This document shows positions 19,032-46,518 of a stretch of 64,000 nucleotides of DNA, piece after piece; position 1 is the stretch's first letter; every line of letters starts with the position of its first letter. Where the stretch lies: positions 16,206 through 80,205 of the forward strand of contig JBDIAS010000001.1 of the NCBI GenBank assembly GCA_039812465.1, read 5' to 3'. A program made the position numbers and the translations under genes. The notes under the pieces are model-generated. The model was not told the origin of the DNA. It saw only the letters and a list, made by a program, of their open reading frames with translations, and ran no database searches. The stretch is from Austwickia sp. Lineage in GTDB: Bacteria; Actinomycetota; Actinomycetes; Actinomycetales; Dermatophilaceae.

Positions 19032-19064
19032 TCGTGCGGGGCCGTTTTCGTGCGCGGGGAGGGC

Positions 19065-21076: not shown

Positions 21077-21108
21077 TCCGGTCGTGGGCCGGACGCGAGG
21101 AGGACCGC

Positions 21109-24694: not shown

Positions 24695-24785
24695 TCAACA
24701 CCTCATGTCTGGCAGGGACCAGCCGAGCGAGCGGCCGGGCATGTTCACGGTCGTTGCTGGTTGGCGTACGGGGCGAGGTGCCCCG

Positions 24786-26054
24786 TCACTCGTGGGGGGT
24801 CTCGCCGGGCTGCGGGGTGCCGGGCTGCTCGAGCACCTGGTAGGGCTGCCCGTCATAGGTGACGGTGCCGACCTGGGTGAATCCCGAGTATTCCGCGACG
24901 CGCACCGCGGCGGCGTTCCACTGCGGCACCGTCGTGCGGAGGCGACGGTCCTTCGCCACCTTACGGGCATGCTCGATCGCCGCGCGACCGAGCGAAGCGC
25001 CCCAACCGCGGCCGGCGTACCCGGGGCGAACCCCGATGGAGACGTCCAGCACGGTCGGGTGGCTCGGCGCGCCGGTCACCCGGGCGGCCTCACCGAAGCA
25101 GCAGTGACCCAGCAGGCGGCCATCCGCGTCGACGACGGCGCGGTAGCCCTCGTCCGGCATCTCGGCGCCGTCCTGGACATGCCAGGCACCCGGCGTCGGC
25201 GACATCGCCAGCGCCAGCCCGTCTTCGATCGTGAGCTGGCGGACGTGGAGCGGGCCGACGGGGTCGGCGACCTCGGTGGGTCGCTGGGCGCCCGCTGCCG
25301 CCGGGGCCTCGGACTTGCGCGCGGCCTGACGGTCCAGGAAGCGGGTCATGCGCTCCCGCTTGTCCTCGCTGTCGAAGAGCAAGGCCTGGGCCGCCACGTC
25401 GAACGTGGTGGTGGCGGGCCGGTGCAGGCGCAGGGCCAGCTTCGTGAGCTCGAGCGCGCGCCAGGACTGCTTGCCGATCTTTTCCGCGAGGGCCAGGCCG
25501 GCGTCGAGCAGCTGCCCGGGATCGTGCAGCCCGTCCACCAGACCCGCGTCGGCGGCCGCCTGGGCGTCCAGCGACTCGCCGGTGAATAGCATCCGGCGCG
25601 CCACGGGGAGCCCCGCCACCTGGGCCAGCCGCCAGTTGCCGCCGGCGCCCGCCAAGATGCCGAGGGCCAGCTCGGGCTGGGCGAACCGCGCACGAGGCGT
25701 GGCGAGCCGCAGGTCGCAGGCGAGGGCCAACTCGCAGCCGCCGCCGAGAGCCGGGCCGTCGACGAGCGCGATGGTCGGCCAGCGGTGGGCCTCCAGGCGC
25801 TCGAACAGGCCCGCGTTGATAGCCCGCAGAGCCGCGTCCGCGTCCCGGTCGCGCAACTGCGCGATGTCCGCGCCCGCGGCGAAGACACCGGGGGTCGTGG
25901 AGTAGAGGACGATCACGCACGGCTCGCGAGACGCATCCGTGAGGACCCGGTCGATCTGCTCGACCATCGCCTCGTCCAAGGCGTTGTGCTTATCCGGCCG
26001 GTTGAGGCCCAGCAGGAGGGCAGCGCCGCGCCGTTCAGTGTGTACCAGGGCCAT
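24786..26054 (-). CDS. PaaF-like enoyl-CoA hydratase fused to a C-terminal GNAT N-acetyltransferase domain
   Basis: Residues 1-~250: FAAGADI, GGGCELALACD and FAQPELALGI (crotonase catalytic Glu residues). An Ala/Pro linker follows. The last ~150 aa carry GNAT motif A, VRPGYAGRGWGASLGRAAIEHA. Confidence 0.8.
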   Translation of the reverse strand: MALVHTERRGAALLLGLNRPDKHNALDEAMVEQIDRVLTDASREPCVIVLYSTTPGVFAAGADIAQLRDRDADAALRAINAGLFERLEAHRWPTIALVDGPALGGGCELALACDLRLATPRARFAQPELALGILAGAGGNWRLAQVAGLPVARRMLFTGESLDAQAAADAGLVDGLHDPGQLLDAGLALAEKIGKQSWRALELTKLALRLHRPATTTFDVAAQALLFDSEDKRERMTRFLDRQAARKSEAPAAAGAQRPTEVADPVGPLHVRQLTIEDGLALAMSPTPGAWHVQDGAEMPDEGYRAVVDADGRLLGHCCFGEAARVTGAPSHPTVLDVSIGVRPGYAGRGWGASLGRAAIEHARKVAKDRRLRTTVPQWNAAAVRVAEYSGFTQVGTVTYDGQPYQVLEQPGTPQPGETPHE

Positions 26055-26067
26055 CTTTCACCGTTTC

Positions 26068-27195
26068 TTACTGGTCGAAGTCGACGGTCACTCGGTCACT
26101 GACCGGGTGGGCTTGACAGGTCAGCACGAAGCCGGCAGCCAGCTCGTTGGGCTCGAGGGCGAAGTTGATGTCCATGCTGACCTCGCCCTCGGTCACCTTG
26201 GCGCGGCAGGTGCCGCAGACGCCGTTCTTGCAGGCGTACGGGGCGTCGGGACGGAACTGCATGAGCGTGTCCAGGATGGTCGCGCCGTCGGTGGGCAGAA
26301 CGAACCTCTGGGACCGGCCGTCGAGGATGGTGGTCACGGTCGAACCGGACTGGGCGGTCGTGGTGGGCGGCGGCGTGCTGATGTCGCCCGGCTTGCCCAC
26401 GTGGAACAGCTCGCGGTGGATGTGATCCTCGTCGGCACCCGACTCGATGAGCACCTCGCGGGCCGCGTCGGTCATCGGCAGCGGACCGCAGAGGAACCAG
26501 TCGTCGATCTCCTCGTGGGACACCAGCTGGCGCAGGATCCGGCCGAGCCGGTCCGCGTCGAGACGTCCCGAGAGGATGTCGACGTCCACCGGCTCTTCGT
26601 CCAGCACGTGGATGAGCTGAAGGCGAGACGGGTAGGCGTTCTTCAGGTCCTCCAGCTCCTCCAGGAACATGATGTTCAAGGTGGTGCGGTTGACGTAGAT
26701 GAGCGTCGCCGTGCTGTTCGGCTCGGTCGCCAGCACGGAGCTGATGATCGACAGCACCGGCGTGATGCCGGAACCGGCCGCGATGGCGCCGTAGTTGCGG
26801 CTCGCCTCGGGGTCCAGGTCGACCGTGAAGCTCCCAGTGGGGGTCAGCACCTCGAGGGTGTCACCCACCTGTAGCTTCTCGGTCGCGAAGCCGGAGAAGA
26901 CGCCGTTCGGGATCCGCTTGACGCCGATGCGGAGCGTGCCGCTGGAGGCGGGGGCGCAGATCGAGTAGTTGCGGCGGATGTCGTCACCAAGGAAGGACGA
27001 GCGCACGGACAGATGCTGGCCCGGCTTGAACAGGAACTGCTCGCGCAGGTCCTCGGGCACATCGAAGGTCACCGCCACGGAATCCTCGGTCAGCCGCTCG
27101 ACCTCGGCCACCCGCAGTGGGTGGAACTGGAGGTGCCGGCGGCCCTTGCCCGCGGTGGGCAGGTCGGTCTGGTCGGGGACCACGGTGTCAGCCAT
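26068..27195 (-). CDS. paaE: Phenylacetyl-CoA epoxidase reductase subunit (FNR-like domain + C-terminal plant-type 2Fe-2S)
   Basis: RNYSICAP FAD motif, GSGITP NAD motif, and C-terminal CKNGVCGTCRAKV...LTCQA. Confidence 0.9.
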   Translation of the reverse strand: MADTVVPDQTDLPTAGKGRRHLQFHPLRVAEVERLTEDSVAVTFDVPEDLREQFLFKPGQHLSVRSSFLGDDIRRNYSICAPASSGTLRIGVKRIPNGVFSGFATEKLQVGDTLEVLTPTGSFTVDLDPEASRNYGAIAAGSGITPVLSIISSVLATEPNSTATLIYVNRTTLNIMFLEELEDLKNAYPSRLQLIHVLDEEPVDVDILSGRLDADRLGRILRQLVSHEEIDDWFLCGPLPMTDAAREVLIESGADEDHIHRELFHVGKPGDISTPPPTTTAQSGSTVTTILDGRSQRFVLPTDGATILDTLMQFRPDAPYACKNGVCGTCRAKVTEGEVSMDINFALEPNELAAGFVLTCQAHPVSDRVTVDFDQ

Positions 27196-27719
27196 CAGAT
27201 CGCCTTGAAGGAGTCGAAGGGTTCAGCACAGGATTTGCAGGTCCACAGGGACTTGCAGGGGGTGGAGCCGAATCGGCTCACCTCGTGGGTGTTCCGGGAG
27301 CCGCATCGCGGACACGTCATCGGGGTCATCAGGGTCAGACCGACCTTCGTCGAACTCGACGCCTTGGTGGGCCCGGGCGGAGCGATGCCGTACTCGCGCA
27401 GCTTCTCCCGTCCCTCCGCGCTGATCCAGTCGGTGGTCCACGCAGGAGAGAGCACGGTGTGGACGCGAACCTCCGAGACGCCGGCCTCGCGCACGGCCGC
27501 GGCGACATCCGCCGCGATGACGGCCGTGGCGGGGCAGCCCGTGTACGTCGGGGTGACGTCCACATCGACGGAGCCGTCGTCCCCGATCCGGAGGTCACGG
27601 ACGACCCCCAAGTCGCCGAGGGTGATGACGGGGATCTCCGGGTCGGGGACGGCCCGGGCGGCCGCCAACAGGCGGTCGACCCCCGGGGCCGTCACCGGCG
27701 CGGTCGAGTTGGTCACCAC
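27195..27719 (-). CDS. paaD: Phenylacetyl-CoA epoxidase subunit PaaD
   Basis: DPEIPVITLGDLGVV and the C-terminal CPRCGS...CKSC motifs. GTG overlaps the paaC stop. Confidence 0.85.
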   Translation of the reverse strand: MVTNSTAPVTAPGVDRLLAAARAVPDPEIPVITLGDLGVVRDLRIGDDGSVDVDVTPTYTGCPATAVIAADVAAAVREAGVSEVRVHTVLSPAWTTDWISAEGREKLREYGIAPPGPTKASSSTKVGLTLMTPMTCPRCGSRNTHEVSRFGSTPCKSLWTCKSCAEPFDSFKAI

Positions 27720-28486
27720 TCGGCACCCGGGTGCGAGCGGTGCAGGTGCTGCATCTCGGCCAGGATGTGCCCGAGGTGCTCGGAGTGGTAGCCGCGGCGA
27801 CCGCCGCGGGCGTGCCAGTGGGGCTCGGGCTGCGAAAGGTCGGCCTCCGCCAGGACCCGGTTGATGTAGACATCCCAGGCCGCCCGGAGGCCCGCCGGGT
27901 CCACCAGGACGCCAGGGAGCTGGTCCGCCAGGTCGGAGCTCTCGAAGAGCTCGTTGACGTACGGCCAGACGTCGTCGAGGCCCGCCTTCATCCGCTCGCG
28001 GGAGTAGTCGGTGCCGCCCGCCAGGCGGAGCACCCACAGCGTGGCGTGCTCCCGGTGGTAGGTGACCTCCTTGAGCGCCTTCGCCGCCAGACCGGCCAGC
28101 GTCTGGTCGCCGCACTGCCGCAGGGCCGAGTACAGCTCGAACTGGTAGGCGGAGAACGCCAGCAGCCGCGCCATGGTGCACGCGAAGTCGCCGTTGGGGG
28201 CCTCGACCATGTGGACGTTGAGGAAGTCCCAGTCGTCGCGCAGGTAGGCCATGTCGTCCTCGTCGCGGCCCTGCCCCTCGACCTCTCCGGCATAGGCGAG
28301 CAGGGTCCGGGCCTGGCCGAGGAGGTCCAGGGACACGTTCGCGATCGCGAGGTCTTCCTCGATCTGCGGCGCGTCGGCGATCCACTCGCACAGGCGCTGC
28401 GACAGGATCAGGGCGTCATCTCCCAGGCCCAGCGCGTAGCGCGCGAGCGGGGGGAGGGTGCGGGTCTTCTCGCTCGCGATCGTCAC
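27713..28486 (-). CDS. paaC: Phenylacetyl-CoA epoxidase subunit PaaC
   Basis: LGDDALILSQRLCEWI and HREHATLW are typical PaaC. 4-nt overlaps with its neighbours. Confidence 0.9.
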   Translation of the reverse strand: MTIASEKTRTLPPLARYALGLGDDALILSQRLCEWIADAPQIEEDLAIANVSLDLLGQARTLLAYAGEVEGQGRDEDDMAYLRDDWDFLNVHMVEAPNGDFACTMARLLAFSAYQFELYSALRQCGDQTLAGLAAKALKEVTYHREHATLWVLRLAGGTDYSRERMKAGLDDVWPYVNELFESSDLADQLPGVLVDPAGLRAAWDVYINRVLAEADLSQPEPHWHARGGRRGYHSEHLGHILAEMQHLHRSHPGAEW

Positions 28487-28809
28487 AGGTGCTCCGCCCC
28501 TTCGGGGACGTCGTAGAACGTCGGGTGCCGGTACGGCTTGTCGATGGACGGGTCGAAGAAGGGGTCCTTCTCGTCCGGGCTGCTCGCGATGATCGAGTCC
28601 GACGGGATGACCCAGATCGACACGCCCTCGGAGCGACGGGTGTAGGCGTCGCGCGCGTTGTGCAGGGCCAGCTCGGCATCCGGCGCGTGGAGGCTACCGA
28701 CGTGGTGATGGCTCAGGCCACGCTTGGCGCGGACGAACACCTCCCACAGCGGCCAGTCCCGCCGGGTCTTCCCGGCCTCCTGCGACGTGCTCTGCTCCGT
28801 GTTGCTCAT
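28483..28809 (-). CDS. paaB: Phenylacetyl-CoA epoxidase subunit PaaB
   Basis: WPLWEVFVR...[11 protein letters not shown]...A.DAYTRR is the conserved PaaB core. Confidence 0.9.
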
Positions 28810-29795
28810 GATGCCGCCTTCGTGATGTTGCGCTGTGCCTGCTTGTCGGCGTAGGCCGATGCGGCCTCACGCACCCACGCGCCGTTCTCGTGCGCCGCGA
28901 TCCGCTTGCGCATCCGCTGCACGTTGCACGGCCCGTCGCCCTTCACGACCCGCCAGAACTCGTCCCAGTCGATCTCGCTGAAGTCGTAGTGCCCGCGCTC
29001 CTCGTTCCACTTCAGGTTCGGGTCGGGAACGGACAGCCCCAGCACCTCCGCCTGGGGGACCGTCATGTCGACGAAGCGCTGACGCAGCTCGTCGTTGCTG
29101 AACCGCTTGATGCCCCACGCCATGGACTGAGCCGAGTGCGGCGACGAGTCGTCGTTGGGGCCGAACATCATCAGCGCGGGCCACCAGAACCGGTTGACGG
29201 CGTCCTGCGCCATCTCCTTCTGCTCGGGCGTGCCGTGCGACATGGTGTAGAGCAGTTCGTAACCCTGACGCTGGTGGAACGACTCCTCCTTGCAGATCCG
29301 CACCATGGAGCGCGCGTACGGACCGTAGGAGCAGCGGCACAGCGGCACCTGGTTCATGATCGCCGCGCCGTCCACGAGCCACCCGACGGCGCCGACGTCG
29401 GCCCAGTTGAGGGTCGGGTAGTTGAAGATCGAGGAGTACTTCTGCTTGCCGGCGTGGAGCATGTCGAGCAGCTCCTCCCGGCTGACCCCGAGGGTCTCGG
29501 CGGCCGAGTACAGGTACAGGCCGTGGCCGCCCTCGTCCTGAACCTTCGCGATGAGGATGGCCTTGCGCCGCAGGTTCGGCGCCCGGGTGATCCAGTTGCC
29601 CTCGGGCTGCATGCCGATGATCTCGGAATGCGCGTGCTGCGCGATCTGGCGGATCAGGGTCTTGCGGTAGGCCTCCGGCATCCAGTCCCGGGGCTCGATC
29701 CTTTGGTCGTCCGCGATCAGCTGGTCGAAGTGGGCCTGCTGATCGGCGGAAGACTCTGCCGCAGCGGGGGTGTCGGTGTCGTAGTTACCGTACAA
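28806..29795 (-). CDS. paaA: Phenylacetyl-CoA epoxidase catalytic diiron subunit PaaA
   Basis: [21 protein letters not shown] and [10 protein letters not shown] diiron ligand motifs. TTG start 4 nt after GGAGGAG. Confidence 0.9.
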
Positions 29796-29821
29796 GGGGC
29801 TCCTCCAGTCGCTCCTTTAGT

Positions 29822-29839
29822 ACCGAACGTTCAGTCAGT
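29822..29839. promoter_or_regulatory. PaaR-type operator ACCGAACGTTCAGTCAGT, 27 bp upstream of the paaA start
   Basis: Its reverse complement contains ACTGAACGTTCGGT, identical to the 14-mer at 32846-32859. Confidence 0.65.
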
Positions 29840-29890
29840 TTTTCATCGGGCGGTCAACGCTGTCAACAGCGCAGACGACCTCCCGACGTG

Positions 29891-29910
29891 CCCGTGACTC
29901 TCGTCACGGG
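29891..29910 (-). terminator. Hairpin CCCGTGAC-tctc-GTCACGGG downstream of paaJ
   Basis: 8-bp perfect stem about 60 bp beyond the paaJ stop. A second small hairpin lies at 29912-29928. Confidence 0.4.
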
Positions 29911-29969
29911 GCTCCGCATCGATCGGAGTCAGTGGTCAGACCCCTCGTCTCCTCGGAGCAGACCCAGTG

Positions 29970-31166
<1,197 letters not shown>

Positions 31167-31256
31167 GGCGACTCTCCGTTCGTTAGCTTCGTTGCTGACG
31201 TCTGCGGCTGGGAAACCGTGGTGGGGACGAGCGTACGTCCGCTCTCTGACAACGAC

Positions 31257-32777
31257 TCAGTCGAGCAGGCTGCCGCCGACCGCAGCGCGCCGGCGCAACC
31301 GGGGGCAGGGACGGTAGCGCCCGTCCCCGTAGTGGGCGCCCAGCGCGTCGAGCAGGTCGCACACCCACCGCGCCCCCACCGCGTCGCCCCAGGCCAGAGG
31401 GCCCTTCGGGTAGTTCACGCCGAGCTTCATCGCCTGGTCCACGTCCTGCGGGGAGGCGACCCCGCGGCCGGCGAGATCGGCGGCCTCGTTCGTGAGCATC
31501 GCGACGGTCCGGGCCACGAGGAGGCCGGCGAGGTCGTCGATGACGCTGACCGCCGCGCCGCCGGCCTGCAGGAGCCCCACGACCTGCGTCAGGGCCTCGT
31601 CGGGACAGCCGTCGGAGGGGGCCACGGCGAAGCGGGAGGCGGTCGCGGCATCGAGCGCTAGGTCCAGGACGACGGTCGGGCGACCCGAGGCCGCCGCGAG
31701 GGCTGTCGCGGTGGGGCCGGTGACCGGCACGAGGGTGGCCTGCCCGACCGACGCGGAGGGCACGCCCTGCGCGTCACCGCGATCGACGGTCACGCCGGCG
31801 TCGGCGAGCCGCGACCACAGCCCCTCCCAGGGGCCCCAGTCGCCGAGGACCTCGACACGCTCCGGGGCGGGGGCCGGTGGGGCCGTCTGGGGGGCCGGCT
31901 TGTCGGAGCCGTCGTAGGAGTAGAAGCCGCGCCCCGTCTTGCGACCGAGCAGCCCGGCCGCGACGAGCTCGCCCTGGGTGAGGGAGGGCATGTACCGCGG
32001 GTCGTTCCCGTAGCCCTCCCACACGCTGCGGGCGGAGGCGTAGTTGATGTCCTGCCCGATCAGGTCGGTCAGCTCCAGCGGCCCCATCCGGAAGCCGCCG
32101 GACTCCCGCACGATCGCGTCGATGGTGGCGGGGGAGGCGGTCTGCTCCTCGTACGCGCGCAGCGCCTCGCCGTAGAACGGCCGGGCGACGCGGTTGACCA
32201 CGAAGCCGGGGGTGGAGGCGACCTTGATCGCGGTCTTGCCCCACGCGGTCGCGGTCAGCGCGACCTTGTCGGCCGCGTCCGCGTCGGTGGTGAGACCGCT
32301 GATGACCTCGACCAGCCGCATGAGCGGGGCCGGGTTGAAGAAGTGCATCCCGACCACGCGCCCCGGATGGCGCAGGGGCGCCGCGATCGCCGAGATCGAG
32401 ATGGTGGAGGTGTTGCTCGTGAGCAGGCACTCGGGGGAGACGATGTCCTCCAGCTCCCCGAAGAGGGAGAGCTTGACGTCCAGGCGCTCGACAGCGGCCT
32501 CGACGACGAGCGCGGTCTCCGCCAGCGACCCGAGCCCCTCGCCGACCGTGAGCCGCTCGCCGGCGGCGCGGGCCTCATCCGCGTCCATGCGTCCCTTGTC
32601 GGCCAACGTGGCCAGGGTCGCGCGCAGCTGCTCCACCGCTTGGCTCGCCCGTCCCGGCGCGGCGTCGGTGAGGATCACCCGATGCCCGGCGACCGCGGCG
32701 ACCTGGGCGATCCCCGCGCCCATCGTCCCGACGCCGATGACCGCGACGGTTTCGGAGGGGGGAAGGGCGCTGACCAT
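31257..32777 (-). CDS. paaH: 3-hydroxyadipyl-CoA dehydrogenase (long form with an extra C-terminal domain)
   Basis: VAVIGVGTMGAGIA Rossmann motif, SNTSTISI and HFFNPAPLMRLVE. ATG at 32777. Confidence 0.8.
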   Translation of the reverse strand: MVSALPPSETVAVIGVGTMGAGIAQVAAVAGHRVILTDAAPGRASQAVEQLRATLATLADKGRMDADEARAAGERLTVGEGLGSLAETALVVEAAVERLDVKLSLFGELEDIVSPECLLTSNTSTISISAIAAPLRHPGRVVGMHFFNPAPLMRLVEVISGLTTDADAADKVALTATAWGKTAIKVASTPGFVVNRVARPFYGEALRAYEEQTASPATIDAIVRESGGFRMGPLELTDLIGQDINYASARSVWEGYGNDPRYMPSLTQGELVAAGLLGRKTGRGFYSYDGSDKPAPQTAPPAPAPERVEVLGDWGPWEGLWSRLADAGVTVDRGDAQGVPSASVGQATLVPVTGPTATALAAASGRPTVVLDLALDAATASRFAVAPSDGCPDEALTQVVGLLQAGGAAVSVIDDLAGLLVARTVAMLTNEAADLAGRGVASPQDVDQAMKLGVNYPKGPLAWGDAVGARWVCDLLDALGAHYGDGRYRPCPRLRRRAAVGGSLLD

Positions 32778-32827
32778 GACGACTCCGTAACGGGGAGGGG
32801 ACTTCCGCACATGGGGAAAGTCCCAGG

Positions 32828-32859
32828 GGTGAACGAACCAGCACTACTGAACGTTCGGT
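32828..32859. promoter_or_regulatory. Composite operator: GGTGAACGAACC (32828-32839) + ACTGAACGTTCGGT (32846-32859) in the paaH / diiron-operon divergent region
   Basis: The same two-box layout (GGTGAACGAAC, a 6-nt gap, then the GAACGTTCGGT palindrome) recurs at 41618-41650. Confidence 0.65.
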
Positions 32860-33014
32860 CTTGAAGGACCGGACTCATCGTCCGCGCCGGTCCTGGGCCG
32901 TGTCAACTTGTCGCGCGCTTGACGGGCCGTGCAGCGCGCCCGTCGGAGGCCACGCGCAGTCCGACGGCCTGCGGGTATGTCGGATCGCTCCGCCTGCGGC
33001 GGCAGCGTGGCGGA

Positions 33015-33032
33015 ACCGAACGAAGATTCAGT
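33015..33032. promoter_or_regulatory. Additional operator-like box ACCGAACGAAGATTCAGT, about 135 bp upstream of the diiron gene
   Basis: Shares the ACCGAACGA and TTCAGT arms with the other sites but has 4 extra central bases. A weaker call. Confidence 0.3.
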
Positions 33033-33164
33033 AAAGATGCCGTCCGCCTCAGTAGGATGGGACGATGGCGGTCAACGGGCCGTCGCACATCGGGGGCGCG
33101 TCCTGCGCCCGGCCCATCAGACTCGCCGCAGCCGCGACGGGTTCGGTGATGAGGAGAATCAGCC

Positions 33165-34193
33165 GTGTCTCAACGCTACGAGAAGATCGCGCACCTGCAG
33201 GAGTTCCCACCTGACACTCCGCAACCCAACATCTACCCGCTCAGCTGGCCGGACGGACCGGCCAAGATGGAGGAGATCTGGCAGTCCTCGCAGAAGGAGC
33301 TGTGGGATCCCGCCAAGCTGCCCTGGGACAGCTTCGACCCCGAGTCCTACACCTGGGAGCAGCGTGAGGCGATCGCCTACTGGTGGACGCTCTGCGCGGT
33401 CTTCGACGCGTCGGCCCCACCCGTCATGGCGACCGCGTTCGTGAAGACGTACGAGGACCACGAGGACGACGTCGTCCGGCGCTGCTTCTTCAGCATCACG
33501 CGCGACGAGGCTGCGCATGAGCACATGTGCAAGCACGCGATCACGAGGCTTCTGGACCACGACGACCCGCTCACGTACGCCCCCAAGACCGAGCTGGGAG
33601 AGCGCCTCCAGAAGAACGTCCGGTGGTTGTTCCACAACGGCGGGCGCTACTGGGAGGGCTACAAGCAGGCCGTCCCGAAGTACAGCCTCGCCGTCCTCTT
33701 CTCCTCGTTCCTCATGGGCGAGATCGCGGCCGCCACGATCTTCCACCAGATGGCCGCGGGCTGCACCGAGCCCGTGTTCCAGGAGGCGTTCCGTCGGATC
33801 GGACGCGACGAGGGCCGCCACATGGGCATCTGCCTCGCGGTGATGGAGCGCGACTACCCCAAGATCGACGTCAGCGACCACGACCTGATCACCAAGCAGA
33901 TCCGCGCCGGGTACCTGTTCTTGTCCGCCATCCTGTTCGAGCCGCCCACGGAGTTCTGGGACCTGCCGGACGACTACATCACCAACCAGCGCCTCGGGGA
34001 GCAGGTCGCCCGGGAGGCGGGCTTCGCCATCCCCGGCTACGAGGAGAAGCTGGAGAACTGGCGCCGGGCGATGCTCAACCTCAAGGGAGTGCTGGACCGG
34101 TACGGCGTCCCGTTCCCCGCGATCCCGGAGGTGGGGATCACCGGGATCGAGGTCACGGACGTCTCGATGGAGGACATCATCCCGGTCTTCTGA
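33165..34193 (+). CDS. Ferritin-like diiron-carboxylate protein (uncharacterised oxygenase/desaturase-type)
   Basis: Two (D)ExxH motifs about 100 residues apart (RDEAAHEH around aa 113-120; RDEGRHMG around aa 214-221) plus a bridging-Glu candidate, LMGEIAA (around aa 186). GTG start follows GAGGAGA. Confidence 0.7.
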   Translation: MSQRYEKIAHLQEFPPDTPQPNIYPLSWPDGPAKMEEIWQSSQKELWDPAKLPWDSFDPESYTWEQREAIAYWWTLCAVFDASAPPVMATAFVKTYEDHEDDVVRRCFFSITRDEAAHEHMCKHAITRLLDHDDPLTYAPKTELGERLQKNVRWLFHNGGRYWEGYKQAVPKYSLAVLFSSFLMGEIAAATIFHQMAAGCTEPVFQEAFRRIGRDEGRHMGICLAVMERDYPKIDVSDHDLITKQIRAGYLFLSAILFEPPTEFWDLPDDYITNQRLGEQVAREAGFAIPGYEEKLENWRRAMLNLKGVLDRYGVPFPAIPEVGITGIEVTDVSMEDIIPVF

Positions 34194-34221
34194 CCGGGCC
34201 CCGGAAAGGGCTGGTGACCCC

Positions 34222-35235
34222 GTGGGTCAGATCCGACTACACCCGTCGTCGCACGTCGTGCCCTGCGGCCCCGGGGACACGGTCCTGGAGGCGTTGGAGC
34301 GGGCGGGGTACGCCCTTCCCAACAACTGCCGCGCGGGAGCGTGCGGGGAGTGCAAGGTCAAGGTCCGCTCGGGCGAGTTCGACCAGGGCTTCGTCCTGGA
34401 CATGGCGCTGTCCCCGCTGGAGCGGGAGGTCGGCTACGGCCTGATGTGCATGGCCAAGCTGATCAGCGACGAGCTGGAGATCGAGTGGGGGACGCCCGAC
34501 GCGCGTCCGGCGATGTTCCCCGCGAAGGACGGACAGCGGTTCGTTCTGGTCGACAGCGTCCAGCGGACCCCGCGCATCACGGAGTTGGTGCTGCGGCCGA
34601 CGGCGTCGCCGCTGCGCTACTGGCCGGGGCAGTACGTCCGGGTCGGCGACCCCGAGGTGGGGCTGCCGATCCGGTCGTACTCCCTCGCCAGTGCCCCGCA
34701 CCCCGACGGTGAGATTCGCCTGCAGGTCACCCGCGTGGACGGCGGACGCACGAGCGCCTGGCTGCACGAGCTACGGCCAGGAGCGGTCATCACGTTGTCC
34801 GGGCCCCACGGGACGTTCGTGGGGGACCCGACGATCGAGACCCCGATCTTGTGTCTCGCCGCCGGGTCCGGCCTGGCGCCGATCCTGTCCCTCACGGAGG
34901 CGGCCTTGCGCCGGGGGTACAAGCGGCCGGTCACCGTGGTCTTTTCGGCCCGACGCCGGGAGGACCTCTACGACCAGGGGCTGCTGAAGTACTGGGAGAT
35001 GCGACACCGCAACTTCCGTTGCATTCCCACCCTGACGCGGGAGAAGGTGGAGGGGATACGGCACGGCCGCATTCCGGACATTCTGGCTGACGTGGTTCCG
35101 TCGCTGCGCGACCGGAGGGTGTTCATCGCGGGCGTGGAGGGGTTCGTCGAAGCGTGCCGGCGGGCGGTCCAGGCCCTCGGGGCCGACGACCGACGGATCT
35201 TCACGGAGGGCTTCTACGAGCAGCCGGACCGTTAA
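34222..35235 (+). CDS. Oxidoreductase: N-terminal plant-type [2Fe-2S] ferredoxin + FAD/NAD(P)-binding FNR domains (MmoC/BenC-type order)
   Basis: CRAGACGECKVKV...LMCMA cluster motif, RSYSLAS FAD motif and AAGSGLAPILS NAD motif. Confidence 0.85.
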   Translation: MGQIRLHPSSHVVPCGPGDTVLEALERAGYALPNNCRAGACGECKVKVRSGEFDQGFVLDMALSPLEREVGYGLMCMAKLISDELEIEWGTPDARPAMFPAKDGQRFVLVDSVQRTPRITELVLRPTASPLRYWPGQYVRVGDPEVGLPIRSYSLASAPHPDGEIRLQVTRVDGGRTSAWLHELRPGAVITLSGPHGTFVGDPTIETPILCLAAGSGLAPILSLTEAALRRGYKRPVTVVFSARRREDLYDQGLLKYWEMRHRNFRCIPTLTREKVEGIRHGRIPDILADVVPSLRDRRVFIAGVEGFVEACRRAVQALGADDRRIFTEGFYEQPDR

Positions 35236-35283
35236 CTCAACGGCGCGCGACCCGTGCCGCCAGAGGCGAGGAGGTGGCGGGTC

Positions 35284-36678
35284 GTGCGGCAGCTGAGCGG
35301 CATGGACAGCGAGTTCCTGGCGATGGAATCGGGTTCCGTGGTAGGCCACTTCGGCACCGTGACCCTGCTCGCGCCACCGGCGGACGGCCGGGTGTTGGAC
35401 GTACGCGTGGTGCGGGCGCACGTCGCCTCCCGACTCCATCTCGTGCCAGTGCTGCGCCAGCGCCTCGTGCCGGTGATGTGGGGCGTCGACCAGCCGTACT
35501 GGGTCGACGACCGCGCCTTCGACCTGACGCGGCACGTCCTGGAGGTACGGCTGCCCGAGGGCAGCGGTGTGGACCGTCTGTCCGAGGCGGTGGCGGACCT
35601 GCACCGGCACCGCCTCGACCGCAACAGGCCGCTGTGGGAGCTGTACTTCGTGACCGGTTTGTCCGAGGGGCGGTCGGCCTTCTACCTGAAGATCCACCAC
35701 GCCGTGATGGACGGCGCGGGGTGGGCGTCGCTGATGGGGGCGCTCCTCGACAAGGAACCGGGACCGCCCGACGTCCCCCCGCCGCGGGACTGGCGCCCGG
35801 AACCGGTGCCCACGCACTTGGAACTGCTCAGCATGAGCGGGTGGTCGATGGCTCGGACCTCCCTGCGCAGCATGAAGCTGGGGCTGGAGTTCATGGCGCG
35901 CGCCCCGGCCCTGACGGCGCGTCAGATCATGCCGCTGTCGCAGTCCGAGGTGATCCCGCTCACCGCGCCGCCAGCGCCGTTCAACCAGGAGATCTCAGGC
36001 GCCCGCAGCTGCGTGCTGGTCGATCTGCCCATGGACTCCGTCCAGACCGTCCGCCGATCCGTGGGGGCGACGGTCAACGACGTCGTGATGACCCTGTGCG
36101 CCGGCGCCCTCCGTCGCTGGCTGCAGGACCACGACGCGCTGCCCCCGCAGCCTCTGGTGGCCGTGGTTCCGGTCTCGGTGCGGGCGCGCGACGACCGAGA
36201 GCCCCTCGGCAACCGCCTGGGGCTCGTCCGGGGCTTGCTGCCCACCCACCTGGAGGACCCGCTCGCCCGGCTGGCGGCGATGCGCGAGGAGATGAATCGG
36301 GCCCGGGAGCGCCGAGAGGCGCTGCCGCCGCAGCTCCTGGTCGACGCCGCCGATTACGCCCCGCCGCTGGTCGCCGAGGCGGGGTGGTGGCTCACCTCGC
36401 GGGTGATGCGGCGCGTCAACGCCTGGAACGTCATGATCTCCAACGTACGGGGCCCTTCGGCGCCGCGGTTCTTCGCGGGGGCGCGGGTCATCGCGAACTA
36501 CCCGGTGTCCGTGATCGTCCACGGCCAAGGCCTCAACCTGTCGGTGTTCAGCATCGCCGGGCGCCTCTGCTTCGGTCTGGTGGCCGATCCCACGCTGGTG
36601 CCGGATCTGCCTCGGATCGGCGACTATCTCGCCGAGGAGCTCGAATTGCTCTGCAGCGCAAGCACTTCGGGCCATTAA
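35284..36678 (+). CDS. Wax ester synthase / diacylglycerol O-acyltransferase (WS/DGAT)
   Basis: Active-site HHAVMDG, an N-terminal LSGMDSEFLAME and NRPLWELY. GTG 35284 lies 9 nt after GAGGAGG. Confidence 0.85.
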   Translation: MRQLSGMDSEFLAMESGSVVGHFGTVTLLAPPADGRVLDVRVVRAHVASRLHLVPVLRQRLVPVMWGVDQPYWVDDRAFDLTRHVLEVRLPEGSGVDRLSEAVADLHRHRLDRNRPLWELYFVTGLSEGRSAFYLKIHHAVMDGAGWASLMGALLDKEPGPPDVPPPRDWRPEPVPTHLELLSMSGWSMARTSLRSMKLGLEFMARAPALTARQIMPLSQSEVIPLTAPPAPFNQEISGARSCVLVDLPMDSVQTVRRSVGATVNDVVMTLCAGALRRWLQDHDALPPQPLVAVVPVSVRARDDREPLGNRLGLVRGLLPTHLEDPLARLAAMREEMNRARERREALPPQLLVDAADYAPPLVAEAGWWLTSRVMRRVNAWNVMISNVRGPSAPRFFAGARVIANYPVSVIVHGQGLNLSVFSIAGRLCFGLVADPTLVPDLPRIGDYLAEELELLCSASTSGH

Positions 36679-36742
36679 CCCAGCCCAGGAGGGGATGGCG
36701 CGCCGCGCGTCACCGAAAAGATACCCGCCAGTACCTAGACAT

Positions 36743-36768
36743 CAGAACGTTCGGTTAGTAATACTAAC
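36743..36768. promoter_or_regulatory. Operator CAGAACGTTCGGTTAGT overlapping the 15-bp palindrome GTTAGTAATACTAAC, upstream of DUF485-actP
   Basis: Contains the exact 11-mer GAACGTTCGGT. It is 65 bp after the WS/DGAT stop and 222 bp before ATG 36981. Confidence 0.6.
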
Positions 36769-40407: not shown

Positions 40408-40443
40408 CGACGGGGGGAGCCGACGATGTCGGCTCCCCCGTCG
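40408..40443. terminator. About 16-bp stem hairpin between the convergent MFS and phaZ genes
   Basis: CGACGGGGGGAGCCGAC-gat-GTCGGCTCCCCCGTCG (one bulged G). Confidence 0.6.
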
Positions 40444-40471
40444 CGCGGTGCGCTTCTAGCTCTCGCCCCTT

Positions 40472-41545
40472 CTAACCCTCGCTCTGGGGCGCGTCGGCGG
40501 TCTTGGGGGTTTCGGCGGCCTTGGCCGCGTTGGCCTTCTGGGTCGCTGCTTCCTCCGCCTTCTGGGCCGCCGCCGCCTTCTTGGCGGTCTCTGCTTCCGC
40601 CTTCTTGGCCGCCGCAGCCTTCTTGGCGGCCTCTGCCTCCGCCTTGTGGGCCGCCGCCGCCTTCTTGGTCGCTTCGGCCTTCTTGGCGTCGATGGCCCTG
40701 ACGGCCTTGATCCCCTCCCGCAGGAACTTCGAGATCACCGGGCCGACGCGCTCGGGGCTGTCGACGAGCACCATGTGACCGCCGTCCCGCACCACGTGCA
40801 GGTGCGAGTTCGGAATGCACTTGGCGATGACCTTGTGGTTGAACAGCGGGGTGACCGGGTCGTCATCGCCCCCGATGATGAGCGTGGGCCTCCGGATCGC
40901 CCACAGCCACGGGAGGCTCGTCCACCCCATCAACGGCGCCATCCGGTACATCGCCGCCCGCAGGCTCGACGGCTTGTTCATGTCGAACGAGCTGATGAGC
41001 TCCGGCTCTTCGCGGAAACGCCCGCCGAACAGGTCGCCGGCCACCTTCTCGATCTTGCCCGGCTTGTAGCTCAGCGGGTTGACGAAGTGGATGAACGACT
41101 TCAACTTGCCGGGCTTGGCGAAGCCCCCGTACGAGGTGGAGACGAGCACGACGCTGTCGACGTGCCGCGGGTGCAGTAGCGCCATCGTCTGTGCGGTCGC
41201 GCCGCCGAAGGAGACGCCAAGAACGTGCGCCTTCTCGATGCCGAGGAAGTCCAGCACCAGGGTGCCGAGCTCGGCGAGCGCGAACATGTTCATCGGGAGG
41301 AGCGACAGTTGACTCTGCCCGATGCCCGGAGGGTCGAACATAATGATCCGGAAGCCCTTCAGGTAGGGCAGGAGCGACTTCCACAGGTCTACCTCGGCGA
41401 AGGCCCCGTTGAACATCAGCAGCGCCGGCCCGGTCCCGCCACACATCTGCACGTGGATGTTCAGCCCGCGCACGTTGATGGTGGTGGTCGTGACTTCGGC
41501 CTCAGAAATGCCGGCCAGCAGGTCGGAGATCGAAACTTCGGGCAT
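40472..41545 (-). CDS. phaZ: Intracellular PHA depolymerase (Pseudomonas PhaZ-type alpha/beta hydrolase) with a C-terminal Ala/Lys-rich repeat tail of about 75 aa
   Basis: By-eye alignment to P. putida PhaZ: LLMFNGAFAEVDL, MFDPPGIGQS, VLGVSFGGATAQ (Ser box), GWTSLPWLWAIRRPTLIIGGDDDPVTP and SHLHVV.DGGHMVL. Tail: (A/T)xKKAAAAxKAEAE x3. ATG 41545 follows AGGAGG. Confidence 0.8.
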   Translation of the reverse strand: MPEVSISDLLAGISEAEVTTTTINVRGLNIHVQMCGGTGPALLMFNGAFAEVDLWKSLLPYLKGFRIIMFDPPGIGQSQLSLLPMNMFALAELGTLVLDFLGIEKAHVLGVSFGGATAQTMALLHPRHVDSVVLVSTSYGGFAKPGKLKSFIHFVNPLSYKPGKIEKVAGDLFGGRFREEPELISSFDMNKPSSLRAAMYRMAPLMGWTSLPWLWAIRRPTLIIGGDDDPVTPLFNHKVIAKCIPNSHLHVVRDGGHMVLVDSPERVGPVISKFLREGIKAVRAIDAKKAEATKKAAAAHKAEAEAAKKAAAAKKAEAETAKKAAAAQKAEEAATQKANAAKAAETPKTADAPQSEG

Positions 41546-41617
41546 GGAGCCTCCTAGCGGCTGCACTGACGACTCAGCGACGGTAAGGCCGCGCGTCGTC
41601 CAGCGGCCGCCCCCTTC

Positions 41618-41650
41618 GGTGAACGAACGGCAGAAAACCGAACGTTCGGT
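41618..41650. promoter_or_regulatory. Composite operator: GGTGAACGAACGG + perfect 14-bp palindrome ACCGAACGTTCGGT (41637-41650), 92 bp upstream of phaZ
   Basis: The perfect palindrome was read directly. Same two-box layout as 32828-32859. Confidence 0.7.
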
Positions 41651-41829
41651 TACATCATGCGTCGGTGACGGAGCCCGGGGCCACGCAGGAGGCCTGTGGA
41701 ATCGATTACATCTTGCGCCACCGAGGCGCTGGTCAGCAAGGCGACGGCGGCGTGAGTCGCCCCTCACTGGTCGGTCGTACAGAAGTGCGGAAATCGTCTG
41801 CGGGAACCTCGCTGAGACGGTTGACTCCC

Positions 41830-41847
41830 ACCGGACGGTCGGTTAGT
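41830..41847. promoter_or_regulatory. Operator-like ACCGGACGGTCGGTTAGT upstream of the acyl-CoA ligase operon
   Basis: ACCG-NN-CG-NN-CGGT-N-AGT pattern. Shares the CGGTTAGT arm with the site at 36743. Confidence 0.5.
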
Positions 41848-42061
41848 TTTGGTGCCCACTCGTGGCGTGCGTCACACCCCGACGAACCCCGGTATGAGGG
41901 GCCGGCGGCTGAGCCATCCCAGCTCCCCGTCGGTGCATGGTCGAAGCACAGCACCGATCACCGCCGACCCTCAGAAAGAGGCCCGCCCTGCGGTCTCGGC
42001 CGTAGCCAGGGCGCAGCAGCGACGGACCTATGCCGTGCTCAGCACGGGATTGCGAGCAAGC

Positions 42062-43573
42062 ATGTACACATTTGCCACACCCCTCGACCGCGCCGTACGG
42101 ACCAACCCCAACGGGCGGGCGGTCTTCTGCGAGGGTCAGGAGATGACCTACGCCGAGCTGGCGGCTCGCTGCCGAAAGCTGGCTGGTGCCCTGAAGGCGA
42201 TGGGCCTGCAGAAGGGCGACCGCGTCGGCGTCGTCGGGCCCAACTCGGCGGCCTACTTCGAGCTCTACTTCACGGTCCCGGCCTGCGGGTACATCCTGGT
42301 GCCCGTCAACTCGCGCCTGGCCGGCCCCGAGATCCGCGACGTCCTCGACGACGCCGGCGTCAAGGTGTTGTTCCGGGACGGCGACTTCCCGGTGCCCGAC
42401 AGCGTCGAGAAGGTCATCGCGATCCCCGACGAGTACAACGCGCTGGTGGAGGCGGGCGAGGAGACCGCTCTGGGCGAGGGCGTCGAGGAGGACGACCTCG
42501 CGGTGCTCTTCTACACCTCCGGGACCACGGGCCTGGCCAAGGGCGCCATGCACACGCACAAGGGCCTCGTGCTGAGCGGCCTGCACTTCATGGCAGCGTG
42601 GCCGTTCGGGCCCGACACCTGCTGGATGATCTCCTCCCCGATGTTCCACACGGGTGGGATCCTGGCGGTCATGTCGACGGTGTGGGGCGGCGGATCCCAC
42701 GTGATCCTCCCGGCCTTCGACCCGGAGAAGGCGCTCGACCTGATCCAGAGCCAGGGCGTGACCCACACGCTGTTGGTTCCCACGATGCTGGCCGCCGCGG
42801 CGCGCGCGCAGATGGCCAACCCGCGCGACGTCTCCAGCCTGCGCTACCTCAGCCACGGCGCCGCTCCGGTCTCCGTCGAGACCCTGCGCCTCGCGCATGA
42901 CCAGTTCCCCAACGCCGAGCTCGTGCACCTCTACGGCACGACCGAGACGACCCCGATCACCGCGGTCCTCATGCACGAGGAGCGGCTCTTCGGGACCCCC
43001 CAGATCAAGTCCTGCGGCCAGCCGGCCATCGGGATGGAGCTGCGCATCCTCGACCCGGGCACGGGCGAGGAGGCACCCGCCAACGAAATCGGCGAGCTCT
43101 ACGTCCGCGGCGCGAGCGTCATGGAGGGATACTGGGGCAAGGAAGAGGACTCGGCGAGCGCGATCGTCGACGGGTGGTACAAGACGGGTGACCTCGGCTT
43201 CCTCGACGAGGGCGCGCACCTCTTCCTGGTTGACCGCGCGAAGGACATGATCGTCACCGGCGGCGAGAACGTGTACTCGGTCGAGGTGGAGAACGCGCTC
43301 GCGTCGCACCCGTCGGTGCACGAGGTGGCTGTCTTCGGTATCCCCGACCCGCGGTGGGGCGAGGCCGTCCACGCGGTGGTCGTGACGGACGTGCCGGTCA
43401 CCTCTGAGGAGCTGATCGCGCACTGCAAGTCCAGGATCGCCGGGTTCAAGGTTCCGAAGACGCTCGAGGTCAGCAGCAACCCGCTGCCGAAGTCGGCCGC
43501 GGGCAAGATCCTCAAGCGAGACCTGCGCGACCCGTTCTGGGCCAGCGCCGGCTCACAGGTTTCAGGGAGTTGA
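42062..43573 (+). CDS. AMP-dependent acyl-CoA synthetase/ligase (FadD-type)
   Basis: YTSGTTGLAKGAMHTH (A3), YGTTETT (A5), GDLGFLDEGAHLFLVDRAKDMI (A8) and PKSAAGKILKRDL (A10). Confidence 0.85.
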   Translation: MYTFATPLDRAVRTNPNGRAVFCEGQEMTYAELAARCRKLAGALKAMGLQKGDRVGVVGPNSAAYFELYFTVPACGYILVPVNSRLAGPEIRDVLDDAGVKVLFRDGDFPVPDSVEKVIAIPDEYNALVEAGEETALGEGVEEDDLAVLFYTSGTTGLAKGAMHTHKGLVLSGLHFMAAWPFGPDTCWMISSPMFHTGGILAVMSTVWGGGSHVILPAFDPEKALDLIQSQGVTHTLLVPTMLAAAARAQMANPRDVSSLRYLSHGAAPVSVETLRLAHDQFPNAELVHLYGTTETTPITAVLMHEERLFGTPQIKSCGQPAIGMELRILDPGTGEEAPANEIGELYVRGASVMEGYWGKEEDSASAIVDGWYKTGDLGFLDEGAHLFLVDRAKDMIVTGGENVYSVEVENALASHPSVHEVAVFGIPDPRWGEAVHAVVVTDVPVTSEELIAHCKSRIAGFKVPKTLEVSSNPLPKSAAGKILKRDLRDPFWASAGSQVSGS

Positions 43574-43587
43574 CACAAGCGTTGACC

Positions 43588-45213: not shown

Positions 45214-45348
45214 CCGGGGCTTCCACCCCGATCGATCGGCCTCGCGCCGCACGCAGTGCACGAACCAGTACGGAGTCGCCCGAGGGCGTCTTCCGTTGAA
45301 GACCAGACAACCGACCCTAGAGATTCCTCGACAGAGCGGGAGCGCACC

Positions 45349-46518
45349 ATGCCTGAAGCAGTAATCGTTGCCATCGGCCGCACGCCGATCGGCCGCGCCA
45401 TGAAGGGCTCGCTGATCGATCAGCGGCCGGACGACCTGGGCGCGCTCGTCGTTGACGAGGTTCTCAAGAGGGTCCCGCAGCTGGACCGCGCGGATGTCGC
45501 CGACGTCATCGCCGGGTGCGCCCTGCCCGGTGGCGAGCAGGCCCACAACATGGGCCGCATCGTCAGCCTCTTGGCCGGAGTCAACGCGCCCGGCTGCACG
45601 GTCAACCGCTACTGCTCCTCGTCGCTGCAGGCCGTCCGCATGGCCTTCCACGCGATCAAGGCCGGCGAGGGCGACGCGTTCGTGGCCGTGGGCATCGAGT
45701 CCAGCACCCACTCGCCGCTCGGCGTCTACGCCGACCAGCCGGAGACCGCCAACCCGCGGCTCTTCAAGGGCAACTCGGAGAACCTCCCGCAGGCCTTCAT
45801 GCCGATGGGTCTCACCGCGGAGCTCGTGGCGGACGAGTACGGGATCACCCGTGAGGAGATGGACCAGCTCGCCGTCCAGAGCCACGCCAAGGCCATCGCA
45901 GCGCAGGAGGCCGGCCACATCGCCGCCGAGATCATCCCTGTGCCGCTCGGCCAGGGACGTCCGGACGCCACCACCGACGACGGCCCCCGCAAGGGCGTCA
46001 CGATGGAGACGCTGGCCGGCCTGCGCCCGGTGTTCCGCCGGGGCGGCAAGGTGACCGCCGGCAACGCGTGCCCGCTCAACGACGGCGCGGCGGCCACGGT
46101 GATCATGTCCGACACCAAGGCCAAGGCGCTCGGCATCGAGCCGATCGCGCGCATCCTCTCCACGGGTGTCAGCTCGTGCGCCCCCGAGGCCATGGGTATC
46201 GGCCCGATCGCCTCGAGCCGCCAGGCGTTGGAGCGGGCCGGCAAGACTATCGACGACATCGGCGTCGTGGAGATCAACGAGGCGTTCGCCGCCCAGGTGA
46301 TCCCCTCGGCTCGCGAGATCGGGTTCGACCCCTTCACCGACAAGCTGAACCCGCTCGGTGGCGCAATCGCCCTCGGCCACCCGTTCGGCATGACCGGCGT
46401 CCGCATCCTCACGACGCTGCTCAACGGGATGAAGATCAAGGACGCCCAGTACGGCCTCGAGACCATGTGCGTCGGTGGCGGGCAGGGCATGGCGATCGTC
46501 GTGGAGCGGCTTTCCTGA
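45349..46518 (+). CDS. Acetyl-CoA C-acyl/acetyltransferase (thiolase, PhaA-like by context)
   Basis: NRYCSSSLQAV (active Cys), NPLGGAIALGHPFG and MCVGGGQG. Confidence 0.85.
   Translation: MPEAVIVAIGRTPIGRAMKGSLIDQRPDDLGALVVDEVLKRVPQLDRADVADVIAGCALPGGEQAHNMGRIVSLLAGVNAPGCTVNRYCSSSLQAVRMAFHAIKAGEGDAFVAVGIESSTHSPLGVYADQPETANPRLFKGNSENLPQAFMPMGLTAELVADEYGITREEMDQLAVQSHAKAIAAQEAGHIAAEIIPVPLGQGRPDATTDDGPRKGVTMETLAGLRPVFRRGGKVTAGNACPLNDGAAATVIMSDTKAKALGIEPIARILSTGVSSCAPEAMGIGPIASSRQALERAGKTIDDIGVVEINEAFAAQVIPSAREIGFDPFTDKLNPLGGAIALGHPFGMTGVRILTTLLNGMKIKDAQYGLETMCVGGGQGMAIVVERLS

Follow-up and report, generated by a model that had tools for sequence, protein, structure and literature searches.

A ferritin-like protein and a ferredoxin-first reductase associated with phenylacetate catabolism genes: a candidate two-component oxygenase

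We analyzed a stretch of 64,000 nucleotides from the genome of Austwickia sp. (contig JBDIAS010000001.1; hereafter, the window), an actinobacterial sequence of 70% GC-content, and more specifically two adjacent genes encoding a ferritin-like protein (X) and a reductase (RED). These genes are divergent from paaH, a gene of the hybrid pathway of phenylacetate catabolism (paa genes). Our results suggest that X and RED constitute a self-contained two-component oxygenase of this pathway, likely a ring epoxidase of phenylacetyl-coenzyme A (phenylacetyl-CoA), a proposal that we give about an even chance of being correct. To our knowledge, PaaABCDE is the only enzyme to which the ring-activating step of the pathway has so far been ascribed. 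The features at the center of this analysis are the following:

33165-34193, plus strand: X, 342 aa, ferritin-like protein with a predicted fold similar to the R2 subunit of ribonucleotide reductase (RNR), putative dimetal oxygenase subunit (open reading frame [ORF], conservation and model)
34222-35235, plus strand: RED, 337 aa, NAD(P)H:ferredoxin-type reductase (domains and position directly after X)
35284-36678, plus strand: wax ester synthase/diacylglycerol acyltransferase (WS/DGAT; profile match and HHAVMDG motif)
32778-33164: divergent paaH/X control region of 387 bp, between the start of paaH (32777) and the start of X (33165)

The ORF coordinates agree with the initial annotation of this DNA, which was made from the sequence alone and described three co-directional genes separated by gaps of 28 bp (X/RED) and 48 bp (RED/WS/DGAT) behind a control region of 387 bp shared with paaH. 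The GC-content at third codon positions ranges from 0.91 to 0.95 in the three genes, which is the signature of real genes in a genome of 70% GC. The WS/DGAT ORF presents two possible starts (35254 and 35284); a GAGGAGG ribosome-binding site is found 9 nt 5' of position 35284, and this start is also the one chosen in the public gene call. No terminator-like site was found in the X/RED or RED/WS/DGAT gap, and X, RED and WS/DGAT are probably co-transcribed.

Distribution and gene neighborhood of X and RED

Relatives of X were found in 562 of 185,579 species genomes with a patchy distribution across Actinomycetota, Alpha-, Beta- and Gammaproteobacteria, Bacteriovoracia and Campylobacterota (70-80% identity). 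Gene neighborhoods were compared by clustering the ORFs of 83 non-redundant loci, many of which come from metagenome-assembled genomes (MAGs), and paa-specific genes were scored within 8 kb; one additional locus (L097) was fetched separately and is not part of these 83 loci. RED is located directly 3' of X in 79-80 of the 83 loci, and this pairing spans five bacterial classes. A paa-specific gene was identified within 8 kb in 42 loci, the regulator PaaX flanks the module in 24 and a Liv-type ATP-binding cassette (ABC) transporter lies within 8 kb in 25. For comparison, we estimate from the sizes of clusters and genomes that a random gene of a paa-bearing genome has a chance below ~1% of falling within 8 kb of the paa cluster. 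The paa-linked loci belong to Actinomycetota, Alpha-, Beta- and Gammaproteobacteria and Campylobacterota, and they display at least five different arrangements:

Comamonadaceae (7 loci): paaK-X-RED-paaABCDE, with inter-ORF gaps of 13-16 bp in locus L026
Gammaproteobacteria (4 loci): paaZ-X-RED, followed by an oppositely oriented paaX
Azospirillum, Paucibacter and Alcaligenaceae: paaX-X-RED, which in Paucibacter forms a three-gene island amid housekeeping genes
Arcobacter: ABC transporter-paaF-X-RED, paaX, two genes, then paaK, paaJ, paaI and paaH on the opposite strand (the locus ends inside paaH)
Actinobacteria: paaH divergent from X-RED in the window, L097 and L010
L098 (Actinobacteria): TetR-X-RED
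L021 (actinobacterial MAG): paaZ-paaABCDE-TetR-X-ferredoxin
Vitreoscilla plasmid pVF1: X-RED beside paaI-paaK-paaABCDE...paaZ, annotated as 'hypothetical protein' and '2Fe-2S cluster-binding protein'

These arrangements are lineage-specific, which argues against mere inherited synteny, and the paa genes are the conserved functional partners of X-RED. The initial annotation had viewed the paa genes as mere neighbors and had proposed an acyl or aryl-acyl thioester or alcohol as substrate; our analysis instead points to phenylacetyl-CoA itself, and not a lipid, as the likely substrate. It had also presented X, RED and WS/DGAT as a three-gene system whose conservation could be examined with gene neighborhoods. 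The comparison bears this out for X and RED but not for WS/DGAT: among the 83 loci, it follows RED in two only, namely in the window and in L010 (Kineosporiaceae), to which the fully syntenic L097 (Dermatophilaceae) can be added. Since WS/DGAT is so rarely found after RED, the third gene is not conserved as a neighbor; it is a lineage-specific add-on to X-RED.

Two compact gammaproteobacterial clusters were found to contain the lower part of the paa pathway together with X and RED:

L100: malic enzyme; paaJ, paaH and paaG (minus strand); paaZ, X and RED (plus strand); paaX (minus strand); then unrelated genes
L105 (Sedimenticola thiotaurini): paaK, paaI, paaJ, paaH, an enoyl-CoA hydratase (ECH) gene in the position of paaG, paaZ, X, RED, paaX and an ABC transporter

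Neither paaABCDE nor any other oxygenase was detected in these two loci, of which 20-21 kb were annotated each. The paaG genes of L100, L073 and L049 reach 403-414 bits against TIGR02280 (cutoff of 345), and by this profile score these ECH genes are bona fide PaaG. PaaG is the isomerase of the ring 1,2-epoxide, and its presence in clusters devoid of paaABCDE therefore implies that something else must make the epoxide. Independent data are available for two strains, S. selenatireducens CUZ and Dechloromarinus NSS, for which aerobic growth on phenylacetate with expression of PAA proteins was reported (Carlstrom et al. 2015, PMC4453571). Their genomes were described as devoid of paaABCD, with only a 'paaE' retained (PMC4453571). 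By analogy with the congeneric S. thiotaurini, the only one in which we have seen the arrangement, we infer that this 'paaE' would correspond to RED and the unnamed adjoining gene to X. In L105, a COX3 and COX4_pro gene pair (2232-3146) was also found inserted between paaI and paaJ.

A sister clade of X was identified in Variovorax (X', ~49% identical to X) on chromids and plasmids (L102 and L104), within a paa-like operon with the following content:

Variovorax operon: PaaZ-type MaoC domain, PaaG/oxepin-hydrolase-like ECH, DUF35-thiolase, PaaN, PaaK-family ligase, X', RED' and ABC transporter

The PaaN protein of this operon scores 625 bits, above its cutoff, and neither PaaABCDE nor BoxAB was found in the operon. 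It adjoins an indolepyruvate/arylpyruvate ferredoxin oxidoreductase, an enzyme that yields arylacetyl-CoA, and the operon may represent a route for another arylacetate. It further presents a split PaaZ (a MaoC domain plus PaaN) and a GlcD-like oxidase.

Several other neighborhoods depart from these patterns. In L021, a stand-alone [2Fe-2S] ferredoxin of 108 aa (8986-9312) is found after X instead of RED. A 272-aa protein of the PaaA_PaaC family, 25% identical to PaaA and accompanied by a 136-aa protein of unknown function, is encoded divergently from paaX-X-RED in an Azospirillum MAG (L094, 7006-8289) as well as in L036 and L037. The distant X relatives P0121 and P0130 lie in contexts without reductase or paa genes and were uninformative. 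Finally, the alpha/beta hydrolase encoded near X was considered as a third component and rejected: its orthologs are confined to Actinobacteria, and the hydrolase of Vitreoscilla shows 23% identity.

Family, predicted fold and putative ligands of X, and the partner reductase

The motifs RDEAAHEH (residues 113-120), LMGEIAA (183-189) and RDEGRHMG (214-221) of X are present in the translation, as is HHAVMDG in that of WS/DGAT, all four as listed in the initial annotation. X did not match any Pfam or NCBIfam family over threshold (best scores: Rubrerythrin, 20.6 bits for a cutoff of 22.8; AcsF, 15 bits), and searches of the PDB with the single sequence and with a profile returned no significant match to any solved structure. 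This is in line with the initial annotation, which had not recognized any characterized enzyme in this protein. Only 257 matches (E ≤ 0.001), mostly fragments, were obtained when the profile was run against 1.84 billion representative proteins, and none connected X to RNR R2, AurF or PaaA. The core of the family corresponds to one cluster at 50% identity plus a handful of divergent full-length relatives, and the nearest named relative is encoded by a Dermatophilaceae MAG (87% identity). All named database records label the family 'hypothetical' or 'ferritin-like', and some members are called 'rubrerythrin' at JGI. No characterization of the family was found in the searchable literature, a scope that does not extend to subscription journals.

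The AlphaFold (AF2) model of X is all-helical with a mean confidence (pLDDT) of 82.9, which increased to 89.4 with a more diverse alignment. Its best Foldseek neighbors, although distant ones, are RNR R2/NrdF and R2lox (E ~5e-4 to 1e-3; TM-score of 0.5-0.6; 13-17% identity). Structures of PaaA or BoxB were not among the top 50 Foldseek neighbors, and a search of a viral fold library only returned further RNR R2 matches. The putative metal ligands are D81, E115-x-x-H118, E186 and E216-x-x-H219. In alignments of 38 and 42 homologs (26-87% identity), H118 and H219 are invariant and E115, E186 and E216 are found in at least 90% of the sequences; E216 was lost only in the two most distant sequences, one of which also lacks E115 and E186. 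Position 81 is acidic in 19 of the 19 sequences of the most divergent alignment, and E97 is likewise invariant. Overall, the putative ligand set is kept in homologs down to ~30% identity, and the ExxH residues on which the initial annotation had based its assignment are thus conserved. X therefore presents the features of the ferritin-like diiron carboxylate superfamily, namely a predicted helical bundle and two conserved ExxH motifs with two further carboxylates. These sequence patterns support X as a ferritin-like protein with the carboxylate/histidine pattern typical of a two-metal site that belongs to no characterized family. We regard X as a new protein family employed in a type of system that is already known.

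Membership of X in related families was evaluated, and it was rejected for PaaA/PaaC, RNR R2 and AurF/CmlI. X is not a member of PaaA/PaaC: it does not match PF05138, TIGR02156 or TIGR02158, and hhalign gave probabilities of 0.4% with PaaA and 0.1% with PaaC, relative to 87.8% for the control comparison of PaaA with PaaC. X does not match PF00268 (RNR R2), and no nrdA or nrdE is present among its annotated neighbors. In addition, the position of the radical tyrosine of R2, four residues after the first His ligand, is occupied by Cys122, which is invariant in alignment A1, and X is therefore not an RNR subunit. AurF/CmlI N-oxygenases were discarded because X does not match PF11583 at E ≤ 0.01; a precomputed match to this family exists for only 11 of the 120 X homologs listed. 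The similarity to R2lox (7qbp), a family marked by a Tyr-Val ether cross-link and a fatty-acid ligand channel, is marginal in sequence (E-values of 0.038 and 1.2 in the single-sequence and profile searches, respectively), with a TM-score of 0.5-0.58 for the fold. Finally, the profile and PDB searches revealed no similarity to acyl-ACP desaturases.

The last residues of X (336-342; window positions 34170-34190) form an invariant hydrophobic C-terminal tail, (E)DIIPVF. Its counterpart is VIPIF in the Variovorax clade and is similar in distant relatives; the confidence of the model is low in this region. By analogy with the R1-binding tail of RNR R2, which it recalls, this tail might dock onto RED. 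We also noticed a 342-aa copy of X (P0122) in which P>L, A>V, T>I, R>C and H>Y substitutions recur systematically, the pattern that would result from reading each C as T. This entry looks like a database artefact resulting from gene calling on bisulfite-converted reads.

RED is composed of the domains Fer2, FAD_binding_6 and NAD_binding_1 in this order, opposite to the PaaE of the window (FAD, NAD, Fer2), and the domain search thus agrees with the ferredoxin-first order initially reported. The reversed order and the hhalign probability of X with PaaA also substantiate the earlier view that RED and X are not duplicates of PaaE and PaaA. RED presents an N-terminal plant-type [2Fe-2S] domain (CRAGACGEC...C, of the CxxxxCxxC type) and the motifs RSYS and GSGLAP, which are the domains and motifs of ferredoxin-NADP reductase (FNR)-like reductases with an N-terminal plant-type ferredoxin (BenC/MmoC class). 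RED scores far under every equivalog cutoff (BenC, 143 vs 430; MmoC, 106 vs 500). Between loci, RED is 48-71% identical, a conservation below that of X.

The phenylacetate island of the window and its regulation

In the window, the X-RED module is located next to a paa operon and several putative regulatory elements:

23000-32777, minus strand: paa operon (paaH, paaJ/pcaF, paaA, B, C, D, E, a gene fusing ECH to a GNAT domain, and the PaaN aldehyde dehydrogenase)
22128-22787, plus strand: TetR-family regulator (TetR_C_24), candidate PaaR-type repressor of the island
29822-29835: palindrome copy upstream of paaA
32846-32859: palindrome copy ACTGAACGTTCGGT between paaH and X
36736-36765, plus strand: promoter-like site at the start of the next unit, a DUF485-SSF permease pair
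36742-36755: palindrome copy after WS/DGAT, overlapping the promoter-like site
40418-45213: alpha/beta hydrolase (minus strand) and two FadD-like acyl-CoA ligases (plus strand), from gene calls, palindrome and synteny
41637-41650: perfect palindrome copy between hydrolase and ligases
41830-41843: palindrome copy between hydrolase and ligases

Public gene calls on the identical contig give the minus-strand order PaaN, ECH-GNAT, paaE, D, C, B, A, paaJ and paaH. Divergent from paaH, the plus strand carries X, RED, WS/DGAT, the DUF485-SSF permease and a major facilitator superfamily (MFS) transporter, beyond which are found the hydrolase (minus strand), the two acyl-CoA ligases, a thiolase, PhaC and a short-chain dehydrogenase/reductase (SDR). 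The hydrolase-ligase block adjoins X-RED in L098 and X-ferredoxin in L021. PaaI was not found among the annotated genes of the paa island of the window.

The 14-bp palindrome ACCGAACGTTCGGT presents 10 matches in the window with at most three mismatches relative to 3.3 expected. The initial annotation had proposed an operator shared by paaH and X as well as a further box at 33015: the former is a real palindrome (32846-32859) but the latter is a half-site only (ACCGAACG, 33016-33023). Palindrome copies occupy equivalent positions in L097 and L010, and the one upstream of paaA is also found in L021. The TetR regulator of the window is 73% identical to the TetR encoded directly upstream of X in L098, and its ortholog lies between paaE and X in L021. 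The palindrome is probably the operator of this TetR-type paa repressor. Together, the positions of the palindrome and the synteny of TetR therefore suggest that X-RED-WS/DGAT belongs to a TetR/PaaR-type paa regulon in this genome. The proteobacterial counterpart of this regulator is PaaX, whose known effector is phenylacetyl-CoA.

The fusion of a PaaF/G-like ECH to a GNAT acetyltransferase domain (24786-26054, minus strand) within the paa operon is kept in L097 and partly in L010. The region 41912-49642 encodes two FadD-like ligases, the thiolase, a PhaC of 764 aa and a PhaB-like SDR, an order that is identical in L098. Finally, glycogen branching/debranching-type genes were found upstream of the paa island (16152-21278). 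With glycogen, polyhydroxyalkanoate (PHA) and WS/DGAT genes in their vicinity, the paa genes are therefore surrounded by genes for three kinds of storage polymers.

Proposed function, alternatives and comparison with known systems

In the mechanism that we propose, RED would pass electrons from NAD(P)H to FAD and then to its N-terminal [2Fe-2S] domain, which would hand them to a carboxylate/histidine-bridged two-metal site of X (Fe/Fe or Mn/Fe). This site would activate O2, and X would epoxidize phenylacetyl-CoA into the ring 1,2-epoxide, i.e., the reaction of PaaABC(D)E on an unrelated R2-like scaffold. The epoxide would then be processed by PaaG and subsequently by PaaZ (or PaaN and a hydrolase). 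Metal content, substrate and product are here inferred from the observed domains, conserved residues and paa linkage. In the window, X-RED shares the paa regulon and coexists with paaABCDE, which suggests that it provides a second epoxidase or a shifted substrate range in this genome. More broadly, and with slightly less assurance than for the proposal itself, we suggest that X-RED may replace PaaABCDE in species such as Sedimenticola and Dechloromarinus and act as a second isozyme elsewhere, perhaps at low O2 or with Mn/Fe, while the Variovorax clade would act likewise on another arylacetyl-CoA.

Several observations weigh against an epoxidase. No biochemistry on any member of the X family was found in the searchable literature. 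No paa gene was found within 8 kb in 41 of the 83 loci, including those of the predatory Bacteriovoracaceae. A single paper (PMC4453571) is the source for the lack of paaABCDE at the scale of whole genomes, and its authors named a homogentisate-type gene cluster as another candidate. Moreover, X coexists with paaABCDE in the window, in Comamonadaceae (same operon), Vitreoscilla, Azospirillum and Nonomuraea. This coexistence would be unusual if the enzyme were purely redundant, and it is just as compatible with a complementary reaction. X-RED could indeed be a paa-linked oxygenase that complements PaaABCDE on a different substrate, either as a hydroxylase salvaging the shunt products 2-hydroxyphenylacetyl-CoA/2-hydroxyphenylacetate towards homogentisate or as an oxygenase for ring-substituted arylacetyl-CoAs. 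We consider this unlikely on balance, but it is the alternative to be taken most seriously: X-RED shares one operon with a complete paaABCDE in Comamonadaceae and a common regulon in the window, a fumarylacetoacetate hydrolase (FAH) gene is found near RED on the opposite strand in 12 loci of Azospirillum and relatives (with a distant homogentisate dioxygenase [HmgA]-like gene in 10 of them), and a homogentisate-pathway cluster was prominent in the proteomics of Sedimenticola CUZ on phenylacetate plus O2 (PMC4453571). However, these HmgA-like and FAH neighbors are limited to one lineage and to the opposite strand, and the gammaproteobacterial and Variovorax clusters hold PaaG, PaaZ and PaaN with no other maker of their substrate.

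Two further explanations appear far less probable. X-RED could reduce O2, H2O2 or NO in the manner of rubrerythrin or R2lox and protect the cell during the oxygenase-heavy catabolism of phenylacetate, or it could act as a regulator or sensor. The weak Rubrerythrin matches of X, the 'rubrerythrin' label of some members at JGI and the many solitary X-RED modules without catabolic context would fit such a role. We nevertheless regard it as very improbable: the predicted fold of X is of the large R2 type rather than that of rubrerythrin, no rubredoxin domain is present, and the placement of the module between paaK and paaA or after paaZ, together with control by PaaX, indicates a pathway step. The initial annotation had favored a coupling to lipid storage, in which X-RED would oxidize or desaturate an acyl or aryl-acyl chain and WS/DGAT would esterify the product into wax ester or triacylglycerol, thereby channeling aromatic carbon into neutral lipids. 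WS/DGAT belongs to its family (TIGR02946, 418.5 bits for a cutoff of 309.95; HHxxxDG site present as HHAVMDG) and lies 48 bp 3' of RED without a terminator-like site in between, in an order shared by three actinobacterial genomes that represent two families. The paa island has PHA and glycogen genes on its flanks, overexpression of PaaX in Rhodococcus opacus led to higher lipid titers (PMC11186279), and R2lox, a structural neighbor of X, binds fatty acids (PMC9314684). However, such a coupling relies only on adjacency in three genomes, and 81 of the 83 loci lack WS/DGAT. L098 otherwise presents the common actinobacterial gene block but lacks WS/DGAT, its TetR-X-RED genes being directly adjacent to those of the hydrolase and ligases. 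X is also dissimilar to acyl-ACP desaturases, and its conserved partners are the paa genes. This makes the lipid coupling the least probable of the explanations considered here, by our assessment a highly unlikely one. If WS/DGAT takes part in the pathway, one may speculate that it could equally release CoA by unloading phenylacetyl-CoA onto an alcohol, a release that the thioesterase PaaI also achieves.

The paa pathway feeds the catabolism of styrene, phenylalanine and phenylalkanoates and has links with both virulence and tropone antibiotics. It is reported in ~16% of sequenced bacterial genomes (PMC9493321). If X-RED is an epoxidase of this pathway, it would explain the aerobic growth on phenylacetate of genomes without paaABCD and settle the question, posed in 2015, of a 'missing epoxidase'. 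It would also correct the pathway predictions made from metagenomes, in which a gene now 'hypothetical' in all named records would gain a role, constitute a new reaction type for the R2/R2lox branch of dimetal proteins and offer a much simpler epoxidase for engineering.

Relative to known systems, X-RED resembles PaaABC(D)E in several respects: both belong to one pathway and one regulon and are frequently encoded in a single operon, both would rely on a ferritin-like protein served by an FNR-type [2Fe-2S] flavoprotein, and their conservation across phyla is alike (70-80% for X and 68-81% for PaaA). In contrast, PaaABC(D)E is composed of five subunits rather than two, and the domain order of PaaE is opposite to that of RED. 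BenC/MmoC/DmpP-type reductases share the [2Fe-2S]-FAD-NAD order and cofactor motifs of RED, but RED forms a distinct clade co-evolving with X and is the equivalog of no named member. With RNR R2 and R2lox, X shares the ligand spacing D/E...ExxH...E...ExxH: the putative ligands of X (81/115/118/186/216/219) parallel those of the E. coli R2, which we take to be 84/115/118/204/238/241. RNR R2 and X both present a conserved C-terminal tail, but the partner of R2 is the R1 subunit, whereas that of X is a reductase. We know of no established substrate or reductase for R2lox. BoxB is related to PaaA and larger than it, and the reductase BoxA is of another kind; X shows no sequence or fold match to BoxB in the PDB and Foldseek searches. 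X-RED presents the genomic hallmark of a BoxAB-like functional class, i.e., an oxygenase and a dedicated reductase encoded with an aryl-CoA ligase and epoxide-processing genes. The likeliest working analog of X-RED would be the BoxAB benzoyl-CoA 2,3-epoxidase, a two-component system of an aerobic hybrid pathway in which a diiron oxygenase and a separate reductase epoxidize an aryl-CoA (PMC4453571 and general knowledge).

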